42,764 nucleotides of DNA from Acutalibacteraceae bacterium (GCA_051893965.1 JBJFHW010000232.1:1-42764), one strand, 5' to 3'; counted from the first letter of the stretch, positions 5,689 to 42,586 are shown. Numbers and translations: made by a program. The notes: a model not told the origin generated them from the sequence alone.

Positions 5689-6111
5689 ATGAAAAAAGCA
5701 TTATCATTATTTCTTGCGGTGCTTATGCTCTTCTCCATCAGCGCTGTAACCTTTGCTTCTGCCGAAGGTGAAGAAAAGTTTTATTCAATCACCTTTGTTG
5801 ATTATGACGGAACCGAGCTTGCCGCTCTCACGGTTGCAGAAAGCGGAATTGTTAAGGCTCCCGAAAATCCGACAAGAGCATCAACCGAAACCGTAAATTA
5901 TGTTTTCAAAGGCTGGTCAAGTGACGGTGGCCAGACAATCTATCATGCAAGCACAATTCCCCTTGCAACATCAGATGTTACATACACAGCAATTTACGGC
6001 GAACAAAAGGTTGAAAAGACCACAACATTCTGGAACTTTATCCAATCCATTTTTGCAAGAATCAATGCAGTGTTTGAATATTTTGCAAGAATTTTCGGCA
6101 GAGAAGGCTAA
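5689..6111 (+). CDS. small secreted protein with InlB B-repeat (Listeria-Bacteroides repeat) domain
   Basis: ORF trimmed to the ATG at 5689, which has an AAGGAGGA RBS. Signal peptide MKKALSLFLAVLMLFSISAVTFASA. The repeat signature is YSITFVDYDG...YVFKGWS. Hydrophobic C-terminal tail. Confidence 0.7.
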   Translation: MKKALSLFLAVLMLFSISAVTFASAEGEEKFYSITFVDYDGTELAALTVAESGIVKAPENPTRASTETVNYVFKGWSSDGGQTIYHASTIPLATSDVTYTAIYGEQKVEKTTTFWNFIQSIFARINAVFEYFARIFGREG

Positions 6112-6137
6112 GATTGTAAATTAAAACAAAAATTTTT

Positions 6138-6165
6138 CCCGGCAGCGAATGCCGGGATTTTTTTG
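6138..6165. terminator. intrinsic terminator, probably bidirectional
   Basis: Hairpin CCCGGCA-gcgaa-TGCCGGG followed by ATTTTTTTG on the plus strand and preceded by an A/T run. It sits between convergent genes (5689-6111 plus, 6177-7571 minus). Confidence 0.7.
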
Positions 6166-13071: not shown

Positions 13072-13108
13072 AAATCACAGCACGAAAACATGCTGTGATT
13101 TTATTTTT
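13072..13108. terminator. bidirectional intrinsic terminator
   Basis: Stem AAATCACAGCA / TGCTGTGATTT flanked by an A-run upstream and a T-run downstream. Shared by convergent genes. Confidence 0.75.
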
Positions 13109-14141
13109 ACCACTTGTTATAAACCTTTTCACAAAAGGCATACATATCTTTGACTTCAAGCACCGTTCCGTCATCAAGCACCGCTTTGCCGCTCCAGAGC
13201 CCGTGCACCTGATGCGTTTTCATTCCGATAAGTCCGAGCGGCATCATATCGTTGAAGTTGTCATAATACGGAACCATTGTCATATCAAATTTTCCGTTTT
13301 CATCAATGAAGTGCCACGGTTTCATCCAGCTTTCGCCGATTTCTGGGTCTTTTTCCAGCCTGACCGTGCCAAGCTTATGGCAAACACCGTCATAAAAAAT
13401 TGCCGTTTCGGTTGCGTTGCTTTCATCGCCGAAGCCCCATGTCAGCTCAAAGCCGAAAAGCTTGCCGTTAAGAAAAGTACTTCCGTTTGCCCAATACCAC
13501 ATATTGCTGTGCGGCCATACGCCCCTGCCCCAGTCAAGAACAGTAAAGGTCTTTTCGTTTGAAAACTCAATTTTCCTGTCGCCGACCGTTACGGTTCCTT
13601 TTGTGGGCATACAGTTAATTTTCTGCGTATAGAAAAATCTGCCTTTTTGCTCAAACGGTGTTGCAATTGTCAGACTTTCATGACGAAGCTGTTTTTCCAT
13701 TGTCAGATCAATGATAAACGGCTTGCCTTTGGCTTTACCCTCAAAATATAAATGCCTTGAATAAACGCCGACATCGAAAACCGCTTTTCTCCCACCTTTT
13801 GCATATTCAAAATGAGACGGCCGGTCTGCATTTTGATCAAGCGGATTTTTATTCGGTGTGATCAGTTCAAGCGCCATATCCGAAACAAATTCGCCTGTTT
13901 TGAGGTTACGGATTTCCGCGGTGAGCGCCGAAGCAATTGAAATGTTAAAAAAGTTGAGTTGAACCATATATTCGCCGTCAGAGGTCTGATAAAAATCCCA
14001 TTCTTTCAGGCGCCATTTGGATGCGCTGATGTTCTCTTTGTTATAAACAAAAAGGTTGTTTTTGCAATAGCCGGGATTGAAAAGCTGACCGTTATCGGCA
14101 AGCAGCGGTGTTTCATAAGTGATCTGGTTTTGTTTGCTCAT
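13107..14141 (-). CDS. DUF2804 domain-containing protein
   Basis: 344 aa, soluble. Overall pattern (WRLKEWDFYQ, WGRGVWP, WYWANGS, FGFELTWGFGD) recalled as DUF2804 from memory. Not verified by search. Confidence 0.65.
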   Translation of the reverse strand: MSKQNQITYETPLLADNGQLFNPGYCKNNLFVYNKENISASKWRLKEWDFYQTSDGEYMVQLNFFNISIASALTAEIRNLKTGEFVSDMALELITPNKNPLDQNADRPSHFEYAKGGRKAVFDVGVYSRHLYFEGKAKGKPFIIDLTMEKQLRHESLTIATPFEQKGRFFYTQKINCMPTKGTVTVGDRKIEFSNEKTFTVLDWGRGVWPHSNMWYWANGSTFLNGKLFGFELTWGFGDESNATETAIFYDGVCHKLGTVRLEKDPEIGESWMKPWHFIDENGKFDMTMVPYYDNFNDMMPLGLIGMKTHQVHGLWSGKAVLDDGTVLEVKDMYAFCEKVYNKW

Positions 14142-18583: not shown

Positions 18584-18778
18584 AACAATACTATGTGGAA
18601 ACAGATGTGCATTATATATAAAAGCAGAATAAGAACAGGTTATTTGAGGTGGACAATTTCGTAGCGACCACACGCCGATGGTATGACAGGGGAAACCCGA
18701 GAGATGCAGGAGAGTGCTACGCCTGCCAAATAACCGCTTATTTATAAAGCCGCCTTGAAAACAGGCGGCTTTTTCTTT
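18584..18778 (+). ncRNA. candidate small structured RNA (unassigned family), promoter-to-terminator unit of about 195 nt
   Basis: - It is bounded by the consensus promoter above and by the hairpin AGCCGCCT-tgaaaac-AGGCGGCT plus TTTTCTTT (18748-18778).
- A 9-bp closing stem, GGTTATTTG (18638-18646) / CAAATAACC (18727-18735), encloses an 80-nt GC-richer domain.
- That domain contains a GGG-GAAA-CCC hairpin and CGTAGC/GCTACG and GCAGG/CCTGC pairings. Confidence 0.4.
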
Positions 18779-22455: not shown

Positions 22456-22525
22456 GGCAAAAACCTCCTAAAAATCAAAGGTGTGTTCCATTTATATGAG
22501 CAGTTTTGACCGCATAGTCTTATAT

Positions 22526-22554
22526 ATTATATCACAACAAAAGAGATATTTCCA
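22526..22554 (-). promoter_or_regulatory. candidate promoter (TGGAAA-N17-TGaTATAAT) of hydrolase-murF-ddl operon
   Basis: On the minus strand, an extended -10 is at 22534-22526 and a weak -35 is at 22554-22549. It lies between repeat element A and the hydrolase start. Confidence 0.4.
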
Positions 22555-22580
22555 CTTTTTTGCAAAATGTTTATAAAAAT

Positions 22581-22818
22581 GGAGTGTATGACAGTGTGGA
22601 GTTTGGAGGGTGGAGTGTGGAGTTATTTTAACAGAAAGTTTCTGCTCTAATTCCACAAAGTTCCTGACTGTTAAACTATAAAATGATACCTTTGTATTAT
22701 TCAGTAGCATTTTAATCGTTGGCGTTACCGCTTTGTGCGGATACGGCACGCCGTGTTAAGAATGCACAAATTTTAAAATTGGGTTAACTCCACACTCCAA
22801 ACTCCACACTCCAAACTC
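22581..22818 (+). repeat. interspersed element copy A: heptamer-iterated terminal inverted repeats flanking a 161-nt core
   Basis: The left arm (22592-22624) is CAG(TGTGGAG)(TTTGGAG)(GGTGGAG)(TGTGGAG)TT. The right arm (22786-22818) is its reverse complement, with 28 of 33 positions pairing. The element is homologous to copy B at 38908-39110. Confidence 0.8.
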
Positions 22819-22861
22819 AAAAAAGACGCCGCCTAAAAAGACAGCGCCTTGCTATACGGTT

Positions 22862-24886
22862 TTAATAAACGCTTGAAGAAGCCGTGTCAGAGGTTGCCGT
22901 GCTTGTTGTGTATGATGCATCTGTGGCGGCAGTTATGTCGGTCGCTTCGGGCTTTTCAAGCTCGTTTCTCTCAATGGACACAATATCAAGCGCACTGTCT
23001 TCGTGCCTGAACAAAAATTCAATCGAGTCGGCAGTCATCAGCCATGATGAATCATAAATCGCCTTGCCGATTCCGTTTGTGTCGGAATATACCTGCATAC
23101 TGCCGTAACCGGAGGTTGTCTGAAGCGTGCCGTATGTTGCCTGATCTTTTCCGAACAGTCTTCCGCCGCCTGCAATCCACGCATTGAAAAGGCTGTCCTG
23201 AATGGTCACATAATCTTTTCCGAGCAAATCGTCTCGCTTGACAAATTCACCGGTCTCAATTTCAAAGGTATAGCCCTCATAGGTCGTTTCCGGCAAATAA
23301 ACCTCTTCTTCCTGAACCTCGGGAACTGTTGTCTGCGTCTGACTGTAATAAGATGCCGTAGTGGTTTCACTTTCCTGGGCTTTTAATTTTTCTTTTCCTG
23401 TATAAGTGGATTTTCTTTCAAAAATTGAGATGTATCCGTCATCATTATATTTCACGGTCGCAATTACATGCGTATAAAGCGGCAGTGCATCATCGCTTCC
23501 TCCGGCAGCAAGGAAGTTTTCATATCTTTTGTCAACCTTGCTTGTGTCTGTTCTGCCTTTCAGTTCGGTAATGATTGCATCATAAATGCTGTTGATTGTG
23601 ATTGCGGTTGTTCCGTTGTTTTCAAAGCTCGGATATTCAACAACATAATTGGCATAAACTCTTCCGTCGGAAAGCTTTGCACTGAATTTTTCCTGCTTGA
23701 TTTCATAGGCAAGATGATCGCCCGTGCTTTCTTCGGTTATCCTTGCATCCAAATCATCGAAAAGCGGTTCACTCGAAAGATTTTCAAGCACCCATTTCGG
23801 TTCTTCCTGTGTACCGTCGTCAATAACCAAGAAATAAAGCTGCGATTTCGGCTCGGAAATATAGGTTCCGTTTTCGTCCTTTTGTGCGGTTTCATCATAA
23901 AGATCACAGATAACGTAAAAATCGCCGTCACTTGTGCGTTTTGATGAATTGACTTTTATAACGTCTGCATTTTGCTTCTCTTCATCAGCAACATTTTCAA
24001 AATAATATTTTCCGCCGTAATAATAGCATTCAGCCGTGTTGATATCATCATGCGCTTCAAGCCCGAGCGTTTCGGCAAGCGAAGCAATTTCGTCCGACTG
24101 CGCGTCACAGTAGCTAACGCTGCTGCTTTCAAAAACAAATCGCTTTGCCGGATCCGATGTTTCGCTTGTCGGCGTTTTTACACCGTAAAAGGTTGCATAA
24201 AGACCGTTTTCATCTGTCGGATTCATCAGATCAATCACATCGTCAAGAACAGACTTACTGCTGTCATAGCCGTTTTCATAAAGCGGCGCAAGCTTTGCAG
24301 CGTATTCTTCAAAAGATGCAATCTGTTCATCGGAAAGCTTTGACAAGGCAATCGTTCTGTTTCCTGCGGTGTTTTTGAAAATATCAGTTTTTATGCTGAC
24401 AATTGCAAGAGCCGTCATAACAATGGCACAGACACAGGCAATGATTTTGATTGCCTTGTCGGCTTTGATTGATTGCTTACTGTCTTTCGGGGCTGAAACC
24501 GCTTTTGTAATTTTGGGGCGGTTATTTGTTTCTGTTTCATGCTCTTGCGTTCTTTGAATGTTCGGCAAATCAGCCTTTTCCTGCACTGATTTTTGTGCCT
24601 GCGCCTGCGTTTCTTCCTGCGCAGATTCCTGCTGACTTTCTTCCGGCTCAGACGGTTCCTGCCCGGCTTCTGCATTTTCATTCTGTTCTTCACCGCTGAT
24701 GCTTTCGACCGTTTGCGGCGTGTTCAAAGCAGGAGTCTGTGCACTTTCGGATGAAGAATCTTTTCCGAGCTTTTCATCGTCAATATGAAGCACAAACGGC
24801 TTTTTTGTTTCATAAACAGATGCTCCGCAAAACTTGCAGAAAGTGTCGCTATCTCCGATTTCTTTCCCGCATCTTTTACATATCAT
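22862..24886 (-). CDS. zinc-ribbon / single-pass membrane protein with large extracellular domain
   Basis: 674 aa with an N-terminal CKRCGKEI...CKFCG zinc ribbon, an acidic and Gln-rich linker, one TM (IIACVCAIVMTALAIVSI) and an ectodomain of about 500 aa. AAGGAG RBS. Function unknown. Confidence 0.7.
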   Translation of the reverse strand: MICKRCGKEIGDSDTFCKFCGASVYETKKPFVLHIDDEKLGKDSSSESAQTPALNTPQTVESISGEEQNENAEAGQEPSEPEESQQESAQEETQAQAQKSVQEKADLPNIQRTQEHETETNNRPKITKAVSAPKDSKQSIKADKAIKIIACVCAIVMTALAIVSIKTDIFKNTAGNRTIALSKLSDEQIASFEEYAAKLAPLYENGYDSSKSVLDDVIDLMNPTDENGLYATFYGVKTPTSETSDPAKRFVFESSSVSYCDAQSDEIASLAETLGLEAHDDINTAECYYYGGKYYFENVADEEKQNADVIKVNSSKRTSDGDFYVICDLYDETAQKDENGTYISEPKSQLYFLVIDDGTQEEPKWVLENLSSEPLFDDLDARITEESTGDHLAYEIKQEKFSAKLSDGRVYANYVVEYPSFENNGTTAITINSIYDAIITELKGRTDTSKVDKRYENFLAAGGSDDALPLYTHVIATVKYNDDGYISIFERKSTYTGKEKLKAQESETTTASYYSQTQTTVPEVQEEEVYLPETTYEGYTFEIETGEFVKRDDLLGKDYVTIQDSLFNAWIAGGGRLFGKDQATYGTLQTTSGYGSMQVYSDTNGIGKAIYDSSWLMTADSIEFLFRHEDSALDIVSIERNELEKPEATDITAATDASYTTSTATSDTASSSVY

Positions 24887-38825: not shown

Positions 38826-38876
38826 AGCTCCCGCAGTCTTTTCACACCGAGACTGCGGGAGGCTTTTTTATTTTTA
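38826..38876 (+). terminator. intrinsic terminator
   Basis: 11-bp perfect stem CTCCCGCAGTC / GACTGCGGGAG followed by GCTTTTTTATTTTT. Confidence 0.8.
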
Positions 38877-38907: not shown

Positions 38908-39110
38908 CAGTGTGGAGTTTGGAGTTTGGAGTGTGGAGTTGTTTCAACTTGAAAATTTCTGCTGAAAATTTTAACAAAGTTTCTGATTATTAATTTAAAG
39001 AACAGATTATGGTAGGGACACGGCACGCCATGTTCCTACTGCACAAACTTTAATGAGGTTAACTCCACACTCCACACTCCAAACTCCACACTCATATACG
39101 CTCCACACTG
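38908..39110 (+). repeat. interspersed element copy B: heptamer-iterated terminal inverted repeats flanking a 120-nt core
   Basis: The left arm (38908-38940) is CAG(TGTGGAG)(TTTGGAG)(TTTGGAG)(TGTGGAG)TT. The inner right arm (39061-39093) is its complement at 31 of 33 positions. An outer CTCCACACTG (39101-39110) mirrors the left terminus. Core blocks are shared with copy A. Confidence 0.8.
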
Positions 39111-39141: not shown

Positions 39142-40203
39142 TTAAAACCTAAGGCTCTTATCCTCACCAATGCCGCACATGCCGTCAAGAATATATTTGT
39201 TGCCGTCCGGGTCGCAGACATAGCCGCTCAGTTCGCCGAAAGTTATGTGATAGTTGATGTCAATAACGCCTGCCGGAACGCGCATGATGAAGCGGTCGCC
39301 GATGTCGAAAATAATATCCGTCATGCCATAGACATCTCTGATGCGCCATTTGTTATATTCCGGGTGCTCAAAACGAACAGGAGTAAGCAAAGTTGTTTTG
39401 CCCTCAAACCAGATCAGGTTTTCGTTAAAATCATTCTGGTTGACCGACTGATTTCTTGTCAGGTTAAAGCCAAAAAACTGCTTTTCTGAGCCGACCGTGT
39501 TTTTGCCCATGGTCGTTACCCAGTCATAATGTGCCTTATACGGATAATAGCCGCGGTGGTCGTCAATGATTCCCGTGCTGTCCTCGTCAGCTTCATATCT
39601 TACGCCGTTGACTTCTATGTAGCCTGTTGCTTTGAACAGATCCTTTTGCGAATAAAGCGGTCGATTGTCGCCGAACGGAATGGAAACAATGCTCGGAAGC
39701 GAAACTCTTTCAAGCGAAATGTCATAGCTGATTTTTCCTTTTTCCTTGTCGGACGCACTGCCGGATACAAACGCCTGACCGTTTTCAAAATGGTTGACAA
39801 CCTTGAGCTTCACTTTTTTACCCAAAGATTCGGTTACATCACCGTTTAAAAGCGTGTCGGAAATAACGGCGCATTTTTTGGAAAACATATCCTGCCAGAA
39901 AGTGACTTTTTTCTTTTTCTTGTCATAAAGCACGGTAAGACCCGTTCCGAAAATGCCCATGTCGCAAACGGCTGTGAGCAAAATTACATCTTTGAGATTG
40001 ATTTCAACAGCCTCCCAGAGCGTAAGCTTCACCTTGTTGAGCGCATTCGGATAAGGCGTCGGGCGGTTTACTTTCAAAAAATCCATGCGCGGAAATTCTT
40101 TTTCAAAGGTTCCGAAATAAGCGTTTCCGTTTGAATCCACAACATTATCGGGTGTCGCAATTGCTTTTCTTTTTTCGGAAAGTACGTCATAAAATTTTTC
40201 CAT
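39142..40203 (-). CDS. DUF2804 domain-containing protein (second, divergent paralog)
   Basis: ORF trimmed to the ATG at 40203, which has an AAGGAG RBS. 353 aa. Motifs DDHRGYYPYKAHYDW and FGFNLTRNQ recalled as DUF2804-type. Not verified by search. Confidence 0.6.
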   Translation of the reverse strand: MEKFYDVLSEKRKAIATPDNVVDSNGNAYFGTFEKEFPRMDFLKVNRPTPYPNALNKVKLTLWEAVEINLKDVILLTAVCDMGIFGTGLTVLYDKKKKKVTFWQDMFSKKCAVISDTLLNGDVTESLGKKVKLKVVNHFENGQAFVSGSASDKEKGKISYDISLERVSLPSIVSIPFGDNRPLYSQKDLFKATGYIEVNGVRYEADEDSTGIIDDHRGYYPYKAHYDWVTTMGKNTVGSEKQFFGFNLTRNQSVNQNDFNENLIWFEGKTTLLTPVRFEHPEYNKWRIRDVYGMTDIIFDIGDRFIMRVPAGVIDINYHITFGELSGYVCDPDGNKYILDGMCGIGEDKSLRF

Positions 40204-40563
40204 AAATATTTTCTCCTTTTGTTTTTTATTGGCAGATTTTGGCTTCTGCCCCTGATTCAATTATATATTTTTATGATATTTTGTCAACTGCGTAAGATAT
40301 GACTTTCAGCCCGATTTTTTTTGAAAACCACTGTGAAAATTCTGTTTCGTCCAAAACAGCAGAATAGCCCGACATGCACTCTGATTGCATGGTTTACAAA
40401 TCAAAAAATCGTGTGAAACTTTTTAACATTGCATTGTCGATTCTTGATAAATATGATAAATTTTGATTATCATCGGCTCTGAAAAGCTCAATAAAAGAAA
40501 GGAAAAGTTCAAAAAGTCGCTTTGGTTTTTAAAATCGGCTGTATTTGTGCTGCGATTGGTTTT

Positions 40564-42417: not shown

Positions 42418-42586
42418 ACTCAGCGTACATGCTTCTTTAACACGTTAAACCGATAAATCAAATTTTAAGTTGAATTAAATAAAATTATTAAGTTTGATTA
42501 AAGATGTTTTTTTAAGATTTTTAAGAACCGATACGAAATCGGGGTTCATTTTGAGCGTTCAAAAATCAAACGAAAGGAATTGAAGT

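Follow-up and report, generated by a model that had tools for sequence, protein, structure and literature searches.

The closest described relatives of the element reported here fall into two kinds of sequence: palindromic intergenic repeats, i.e., miniature transposable elements with inverted repeats (MITEs), repetitive extragenic palindromic (REP) sequences with their inverted doublets (REPINs), and BOX elements, and arrays of tandem heptanucleotides. Arrays of 7-bp heptads, direct or inverted, are a proven mode of protein binding in Firmicutes plasmids, where the ribbon-helix-helix (RHH) omega repressor of the pSM19035 family reads the heptad WATCACW; these arrays are known only from plasmid promoters. 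Two copies (A and B) of an element that joins both kinds of sequence are present in the window, that is, the whole 42,764-nt stretch of Acutalibacteraceae bacterium DNA analyzed here (GCA_051893965.1 JBJFHW010000232.1:1-42764). Heptanucleotide repeats of the sequence TAACTGA have been described in Beggiatoaceae, Cyanobacteria, and Bacteroidetes (MacGregor 2015, PMC4679880). These and the cyanobacterial short tandemly repeated repetitive (STRR) sequences form direct arrays, mostly just upstream of start codons, with one indirect repeat among 170 TAACTGA sets in BOGUAY; their function is unassigned, RNA-binding proteins having been proposed (PMC4679880). Heptanucleotide repeats are the commonest long simple-sequence repeats in many prokaryotes according to Mrazek (2007), as quoted in PMC4679880. 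The arms of copies A and B belong to this known class of simple-sequence repeats; each of the two kinds is familiar, and their combination is apparently undescribed and uncatalogued. With a modest preference over the alternatives weighed below, the copies are read here as a dispersed, non-autonomous palindromic repeat, similar to MITEs, REPINs, and BOX elements, with microsatellite-like arms. On balance they are two diverged members of one species-level subfamily, within a much larger, widespread superfamily of the Oscillospirales (gut and rumen Clostridia). The two copies are composed as follows.

22580–22822: copy A, whole element, as read from the sequence.
22580–22591, plus strand: outer solitary TGGAG of copy A (22580–22584) and its 7-nt spacer TGTATGA, which mirror the right-hand outer unit of copy B.
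22592–22624, plus strand: left arm of copy A, CAG(TGTGGAG)(TTTGGAG)(GGTGGAG)(TGTGGAG)TT, four in-phase KKTGGAG heptads.
22625–22785, plus strand: core of copy A, 161 nt, 35% G+C, with small hairpins CAGAAAGTTTCTG (22632–22644) and ACGGCACGCCGT (22743–22754).
22786–22822, plus strand: right arm of copy A, AA(CTCCAMA)x4 CTC, the arm proper being 22786–22818.
38908–39110: copy B, whole element, as read from the sequence.
38908–38940, plus strand: left arm of copy B, four in-phase heptads.
38941–39060, plus strand: core of copy B, 120 nt, 33% G+C, with hairpin GTAGGGACACGGCACGCCATGTTCCTAC (39012–39039).
39061–39110, plus strand: right arm of copy B (39061–39093), outer spacer, and extra CTCCACACTG (39101–39110).

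A first-pass annotation, made from the window without searches, had described the arms of copy A with an outer GGAG at 22581–22584 and 28 of 33 positions paired, all of which is borne out by the sequence; the perfectly paired inner run, which it gave as 13 nt, is present and measures 14. Shifted by one heptad, the arms of copy A pair at 96% over 24 nt. The right arm runs into an A-run that is the T-tail of the neighboring minus-strand terminator. The second copy that had been claimed, with the same architecture, shared arms, and ordered core blocks, was likewise recovered 16.3 kb away: the arms of copy B are complementary at 31 of 33 positions, left and right arms of the two copies are identical at 31 and 30 of 33 positions, respectively, and the core blocks next to the arms align at 81 to 83% over 81 to 86 nt. 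An imperfect inverted repeat between the copies extends up to 46 to 59 nt, with 22580–22625 and 39060–39105 being 89% complementary over 46 nt. Matches with at most one mismatch to the heptad dimer TGGAGTKTGGAGT numbered 13, all within the four arms (expected 0.10; 0 of 100 shuffles), and Tandem Repeats Finder (TRF) reported a period of 7 at 4.4 to 5.3 copies in each arm. The elements, 238 nt (A) and 203 nt (B) in length, are noncoding; the only overlapping open reading frame (ORF), of 85 aa at copy A (22492–22749, minus strand), matches no family and has no counterpart in copy B, which agrees with the earlier statement that the copies have no ORF in common.

Relatives were collected by scanning one genome per species of the Genome Taxonomy Database for the arm pattern (family figures are among the matches listed) and by scanning metagenomes for a second pattern requiring the TG variant. 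The loci analyzed, designated L, are 8-kb blocks or short contigs, with taxonomic labels on those from metagenome-assembled genomes (MAGs) and none on those from metagenomes; gene calls are crude except for L189, L243, and L204, which were checked against Pfam. Mixed GGAGTGT/GGAGTTT arrays were found at no fewer than about 34 loci in rumen and gut MAGs of Oscillospirales type in the genome scan and at 120 loci or more in the metagenome scan. Among the matches listed, uniform (GGAGTTT)n arrays occur in many phyla (Nostoc, Bacteroidota, Acidobacteriota, Nitrospirota, and others). The architecture of copies A and B recurs in the Clostridia-type loci: an outer AGTGT, (GGAGTKT)n, an inner GGAGTT(A/G/T), a core of 13 to ∼450 nt (only 13–30 nt in many relatives), and a mirror arm. 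Among 270 arrays listed, neighboring pairs within 450 nt of each other were ordered GGAG-then-CTCC in 54 cases and CTCC-then-GGAG in one. Arrays most often had four units (114 arrays), with three in 100, five in 25, and a thin tail to 23, three units being the detection floor of the array scan. A cultured carrier, Caproiciproducens sp. MSJ-32 (L126), has an array of 11 units. A perfect inner hairpin of at least 5 bp, 5 to 10 nt inside the array, accompanies ∼31% of arrays as compared to 13 to 15% in controls, the commonest module being GGAGTT-NNGGT-[GTCGGC-loop-GCCGAC]-GGATTTGA, which has no GTAG; the equivalents in copies A and B are weak and AT rich. Cores are unrelated between subfamilies. 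Such strict polarity and heptad conservation, set against unrelated cores, imply a specific recognizing protein.

Dispersal is evident within subfamilies. L086 and L118, from two different MAGs, have in common a 300-nt element at 84.5% identity with non-homologous flanks, and other cross-MAG subfamily pairs are L077/L112 and L044/L069. Copies also recur within single contigs (at least four in L066, three in L061, two in L106), and L243, L190, and L112 each hold three elements within 4 to 8 kb. The wider copies that the first-pass annotation had proposed to look for exist, their architecture recurring in many MAGs, with neither a clean empty site nor a target-site duplication (TSD) among them. 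Contigs often end inside an arm or core of the element (L130, L084, L032, L045, and L057), which suggests that it commonly interrupts the assembly of these MAGs; an exact-protein look-up with the hydrolase gene beside copy A gave a single match, in an identical Logan unitig that breaks inside the element.

Comparison of arrays provided a view of how the arms change. Variable trinucleotides within one array are more alike than chance (0.616 versus 0.457, p<0.0005), and identity between units i and i+2 is as high as between adjacent units, which fits duplications of 7 and 14 nt. Slippage was observed directly in L112 and L226, which are 96.8% identical over 3.2 kb (L112:3560–3960 and L226:800–1180 span the element): the only differences inside the element are an indel of 14 nt (two heptads) in one arm and a single G/T substitution at a K position, and the core and adjoining flanks are otherwise identical. 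Given this indel and the homogenization within arrays, the arms behave as short microsatellites. They show head-to-tail 7-nt units beyond chance and, in L112/L226 and not in copy B and its orthologue in L084, variation in unit number; the latter pair has equal unit numbers and one K-position change. Arms of the same element are complementary at 25.3 of 30 positions on average and arms of different elements at 25.6 of 30 (permutation p 0.85), and no element-specific covariation of arms was found. Because the level of pairing is the same within and between elements, no element-specific compensatory evolution is apparent, and arm complementarity follows from both arms copying one consensus. The arms illustrate an inverted repeat that stays foldable without compensatory evolution: each arm can slip on its own and the element still folds, since arms made of tandem repeats pair in every register.

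The genomic setting of the two copies is defined by the following neighbors.

22862–24886, minus strand: zinc-ribbon gene (Pfam), neighbor of copy A.
22823–22850, minus strand: intrinsic terminator of the zinc-ribbon gene, directly abutting copy A.
22526–22554, minus strand: sigma-70-type promoter of the hydrolase-murF-ddl operon, TGGAAA-17-TGnTATAAT, 10/12.
38828–38861, strand not assigned: GC-rich hairpin of a terminator, bordered on either side by A/T runs and situated between copy B and the FtsX-permease gene.

Pfam agrees with the earlier calls of the zinc-ribbon gene and the hydrolase-murF-ddl operon and with the lack of a nearby transposase, and location of the terminator (22823–22850) and promoter (22526–22554) confirms that copy A lies between the zinc-ribbon gene end and the operon promoter. 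The promoter is outside copy A, downstream of it on the minus strand, with the −35 box ∼30 nt away. Copy B has as its neighbors the terminator hairpin after the FtsX-permease gene on one side and the stop codon (39142) of the convergent DUF2804 gene on the other. In the operon of nine relatives (77–86% amino-acid identity, with hydrolase homologues labeled Ruminococcus or Acutalibacteraceae), the upstream spacers are 125 to 470 nt long; the heptad element is absent from those that were read, among them spacers of 125 to 230 nt, GGAG-7-GGAG occurs nowhere in six 8-kb relative loci, and the operon promoter region is recognizably conserved and alignable in the closest relatives, which lack the element. 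Since the element is missing upstream of the relatives' operon, copy A is a lineage-specific addition outside the ancestral control region. Neither window copy is part of a gene's control region. The closest public relative, an Acutalibacteraceae MAG (L084, 83–87% nucleotide identity), carries copy B at the orthologous site beside the DUF2804 gene in the same orientation, its right arm and outer unit being conserved and local identity being similar to that of the adjoining gene end; judged from this alignment, copy B is vertically retained. Of the orthologous intergenic regions that the first-pass annotation had proposed as a test, the one upstream of the operon lacks copy A in relatives, and the one beside the DUF2804 gene keeps copy B in L084.

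We infer the mode of spread, and any effect on RNA, from these observations. The element consists of two mirror-image half-sites facing across a core that varies freely between subfamilies. Each half-site is a short GGAGTKT array, typically of four units, with AGTGT outside and GGAGTT(A/G) inside, followed in about one third of cases by the small GC hairpin. Spread, present or past, would be non-autonomous, by way of a trans-encoded protein that recognizes the heptad ends. After insertion each array may evolve alone through replication slippage in steps of 7 or 14 nt, and elements would be tolerated chiefly at short distances past stop codons. A very stable hairpin is predicted to form in either reading direction, in the transcript or in a strand of extruded DNA, transcribed elements probably forming hairpins like those of REP sequences and bacterial interspersed mosaic elements (BIMEs). 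The present effect of copies A and B is most likely that of a passive palindromic spacer or of a REP/BIME-style 3'-end hairpin.

Several observations weigh against a mobile repeat of this kind. There is no direct TSD at the ends of copy A, copy B, or the L066/L086/L118 subfamily, the ends themselves being somewhat ambiguous, and the flanks, T rich on the left and A rich on the right, are palindromic rather than direct. No autonomous element with the same ends was found, as long forward-reverse arm pairs (0.8–4 kb) enclose housekeeping genes; the transposase, RAYT (REP-associated tyrosine transposase), or invertase gene flanked by the arms that had been suggested earlier as a search target was thus not found between these pairs. 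Transposition is deduced from dispersal because no clean filled/empty orthologous pair with alignable flanks is available: the gene upstream of the hydrolase-murF-ddl operon differs in every relative, leaving no alignable boundaries from which a TSD could be deduced, and a second filled/empty comparison (L114 versus L074) failed on broken synteny. Only two copies occur in 42.8 kb, and among the matches listed, sequences related to the A/B core are confined to L130, from the same strain, and L084. About half of the relatives' arrays are solo or paired with an array of a different heptad, and such arrays are not predicted by a simple transposon with terminal inverted repeats. Finally, the elements hug stop codons, possibly reflecting function rather than tolerated insertion. 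The MITE/REPIN-like option of the first-pass annotation is nonetheless the best supported, by recurrence, by dispersal, by the frequent contig breaks inside the element, and by the lack of copy A in relatives; neither a TSD nor an autonomous partner was found.

Of the alternatives, the one that survives best, although it is unlikely, is a functional RNA, in which the ∼30-bp heptad stem and its side hairpins would act within the flanking mRNA, either at the 3' end or between cistrons. The roles of such a hairpin, no more probable than the RNA itself, might be to block 3'-5' exonucleases, to be cleaved by RNase III, or to modulate translation termination or re-initiation, with Shine-Dalgarno-like GGAG repeats making up the 5' arm and anti-Shine-Dalgarno-like CUCC repeats the 3' arm. 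Both copies fold very stably on either strand (z-scores −7.0 to −10.1; minimum free energy −81 to −87 kcal/mol), and the polarity yields the same RNA in either insertion orientation. Typical elements start 4 to 20 nt past the upstream stop codon and end 16 to 45 nt before the next start codon, and because the intercistronic spacer is filled, with no room for a promoter, many relatives must be co-transcribed, the gene calls at L189 and L243 being Pfam-checked. Copy B, between the DUF2804 stop codon and the shared terminator, would lie in a minus-strand 3' untranslated region (UTR); however, copy A is preceded by a terminator and followed by a promoter. Element positions (co-directional, 16; convergent, 6; divergent, 3) are near the background of the same loci, so that neither orientation nor intergenic type is biased above it. 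The inner hairpin keeps its pairing, with compensatory changes at three of six stem pairs in 22 modules (19 cells; 0 of 500 shuffles reach that), a count that rests on an alignment limited to sequences selected for having the hairpin, which only 31% of arrays possess. In contrast, the arms lack element-specific covariation, and the loss of two heptads from one arm need not be matched in its partner, so that selection on the pairs is not visible. No Rfam family matches either copy.

Two further ideas about the arrays and their flanking genes were rejected. CTCCACA arrays as 5'-UTR or promoter-proximal signals for downstream genes are countered by outward gene starts and ends both being common and by the background-like distribution of intergenic types. 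An origin of the arrays from Shine-Dalgarno sites of flanking genes is countered by polarity, GGAG on the left and CTCC on the right being opposite to the expectation for divergent genes.

A more specific proposal is that the heptad arrays are putative recognition or cleavage sites of a dedicated protein, either a transposase using any TG...CA heptad boundary or an RHH-like reader with one heptad per dimer; this is decidedly doubtful. Improbable, too, is that the arrays are double-stranded DNA sites with operator-like heptads, one per dimer as for the omega repressor, for a putative abundant host nucleoid-associated, partition, or insulator protein, and the chance is equally slim that two-fold symmetric binding accounts for their inverted arrangement. 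Conservation across genera extends to heptad sequence and direction, not to pairing or core, unit number is narrowly spread around four, and solo and mixed-heptad arrays fit modular binding sites better than transposon ends. However, no candidate protein was identified, and no RHH or other regulator gene adjoins either copy (Pfam); several unrelated heptads in the same structural position would need several readers; position relative to promoters is inconsistent; and unit number changes between near-identical strains.

The arrays could also be a local by-product, heptanucleotide repeats having arisen in place by polymerase slippage beside pre-existing palindromes, with neither mobility nor function, an explanation given little credence here. 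It draws on the reported status of heptanucleotide repeats as the commonest long simple-sequence repeats in many prokaryotes (via PMC4679880), on the occurrence of (GGAGTTT)n arrays in many phyla, and on slippage being directly observed and arrays being internally homogenized. Nevertheless, the 54:1 polarity, the fixed AGTGT/GGAGTT boundaries, and the modal four units are unexpected from independent expansions, whole elements including cores recur at non-homologous sites, and the arms and ordered core blocks of copy A recur in copy B at a distance of 16 kb.

An inverton, that is, a phase-variable segment flipped by a recombinase encoded elsewhere, is hardly credible: inverted repeats of ∼33 nt do flank a 120- to 160-nt segment, and trans-acting recombinases such as RecV of C. 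difficile are known in Clostridia, but copy B lies between convergent gene ends with no target for a switchable promoter, the operon beside copy A has its own promoter outside the element, a promoter scan of regions including both elements found no promoter-like site within either, many relatives' cores span only 13 to 30 nt, and hundreds of sites would need to be invertons. The invertible segment entertained in the first-pass annotation is likewise not supported, copy B also keeping its orientation in L084 and no recombinase being present in the window.

Catalogue searches with the two copies were negative. In Rfam, searched at gathering and at permissive settings with both window copies and with 16 plus 4 related loci, no family reached threshold, the sub-threshold matches being chance hits of long-hairpin microRNA precursors far below threshold; a CRISPR-DR26 match inside copy B was weak (14.7 bits, E 8.8) and was dismissed. 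Copy B gave no blastn match to plasmids and phages. The A/B-core patterns had no match in viral contigs or JGI metagenomes, and the arm pattern in viral contigs found only single, partnerless (GGAGTTT)3 runs. No searchable paper contained the arm sequence, a literature search on repeated heptamers of Clostridia gave nothing specific, and an exact-protein look-up with the DUF2804 gene flanking copy B gave no match. These negatives (Rfam, plasmids, phages, literature) agree with the initial impression that the heptad termini match no known insertion sequence (IS) or MITE family.

Other features of the related loci were noted. Different heptads occupy the arm position in some elements (CTTAAAA/CTGAAAA, CGGAATG/CGTAATG, CAATTAA, GCAATKC, and CCTGTAA; L061:5900–7100, L042:2930–3060, L024:5440–5540, L125:2100–2260, and L106:7250–7460), sometimes combined with a CTCCACA arm, so that the two arms are non-complementary. 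Uniform (GGAGTTT)n or (GGAGTTA)n arrays are found in Nostoc (L017, L033, L040, L054, L065, and L073) and at many Bacteroidota and Acidobacteriota loci, with up to 43 units in L054; at some Nostoc loci, arrays built from different heptads face each other at a distance of 90 to 180 nt. In a Ruminococcus MAG, L066:4499–4823 and 5794–6147 form a 354-nt inverted duplication (88.7%) that includes a heptad element and flank and brackets a sigma-factor-like ORF; this could be an invertible or recombining segment. Classical REPIN-like hairpins with GTAG (CCGTAGGGGCGCACCCGCGTGTGCGCC ... GGTCGCACACCCGGGTGCGACCCTACGG) are nested in the loops of heptad elements at L086:860–1000 and L118:4640–4790, and also in L013, L111, and L122. 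Genomes with these nested hairpins also carry REP-type repeats, inserted into or enclosed by heptad palindromes.

The window itself (42.7% G+C) is chromosomal DNA with housekeeping genes, among them rimP-nusA-ylxR-infB-rbfA-truB-ribF, murF, ddl, ABC/FtsX genes, and a two-component system (Pfam), and no transposase, recombinase, RAYT, or HUH protein was found among the tested ORFs, all of which are housekeeping or unmatched (Pfam). Two DUF2804 paralogues lie at 13107–14141 and 39142–40260, both on the minus strand, the second flanking copy B. The terminator beside copy A is itself a twice-repeated 15-nt unit (AAAAAGACACCGCCT; window 22820–22849; 86% matches by TRF). A skipping-rope RNA (RF02924) at 18639–18734 on the plus strand scores 45.9 bits against a gathering score of 36.7; it occupies the spacer just past the end of ddl (18783), in which the listed ORFs are all short and unmatched. 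A 23-nt AT-rich unit is repeated 2.2 times at 42454–42502, downstream of an fn3-domain gene.

In the gut and rumen, Oscillospirales rank with the most abundant bacteria, and nearly all knowledge of them comes from MAGs. For this order, a high-copy palindromic repeat that interrupts assemblies, takes up intercistronic spacers, and has slippage-prone arms bears on the quality of assemblies, on strain typing, and possibly on the expression of operons. If there is a dedicated heptad protein, the element would be a new class of bacterial mobile or chromatin element with ends tunable by slippage, and the intergenic DNA of a major gut and rumen bacterial group would have been colonized by that class. 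If the repeat is only neutral, masking and counting this uncatalogued family would still be of use in annotation pipelines.

Measured against known systems, the element resembles bacterial MITEs (Correia/NEMIS of Neisseria; ERIC) in being a noncoding sequence of ∼100 to 300 nt with terminal inverted repeats, in having many intergenic copies that are often co-transcribed, in its conserved ends and variable interiors, and in breaking short-read assemblies. Of the features that define MITEs, a size below ∼500 bp, lack of coding capacity, terminal inverted repeats, and dispersed copies at unrelated sites were all found, and a direct TSD was not. Unlike in MITEs, the ends are tandem 7-nt arrays of varying number whose arms slip independently, solo half-sites are common, and no TSD is seen; no IS with matching ends was found in the window, between long arm pairs, or among plasmids and phages. 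The REP/REPIN-RAYT system (E. coli BIMEs) may share half-sites with a small GC hairpin that occur as singlets and inverted doublets (heptad arrays occur as both in relatives); it shares extragenic location, frequently within a few nucleotides of a preceding stop codon, the absence of a TSD, and hairpin stems that vary between genomes and keep pairing. It differs in that REPs lack a heptad array, whereas the heptad module has no conserved GTAG at the hairpin, only ∼31% of heptad arrays have the hairpin, and no RAYT gene was seen in the loci examined. BOX of Streptococcus pneumoniae (boxA-boxB(n)-boxC) is likewise a modular Firmicutes intergenic repeat with variable tandem module number, ends of partial complementarity that form a stem-loop, a lack of coding capacity, and no known mobilizing enzyme; the BOX module, however, is 45 nt long and internal, while the 7-nt units of the heptad elements form the arms, and the two have no sequence similarity. 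With omega arrays the elements have in common 7-bp units iterated 2 to 10 times, direct or inverted, in Firmicutes DNA; the omega heptad has another sequence and is not known as a dispersed chromosomal repeat. The STRR/TAACTGA repeats share tandem 7-nt intergenic units, a patchy phylogenetic distribution, and unit-number variation (PMC4679880), and are set apart from the heptad elements by the arrangement of the latter, in which a pair of short, facing arrays with fixed polarity encloses a core to make a discrete element.

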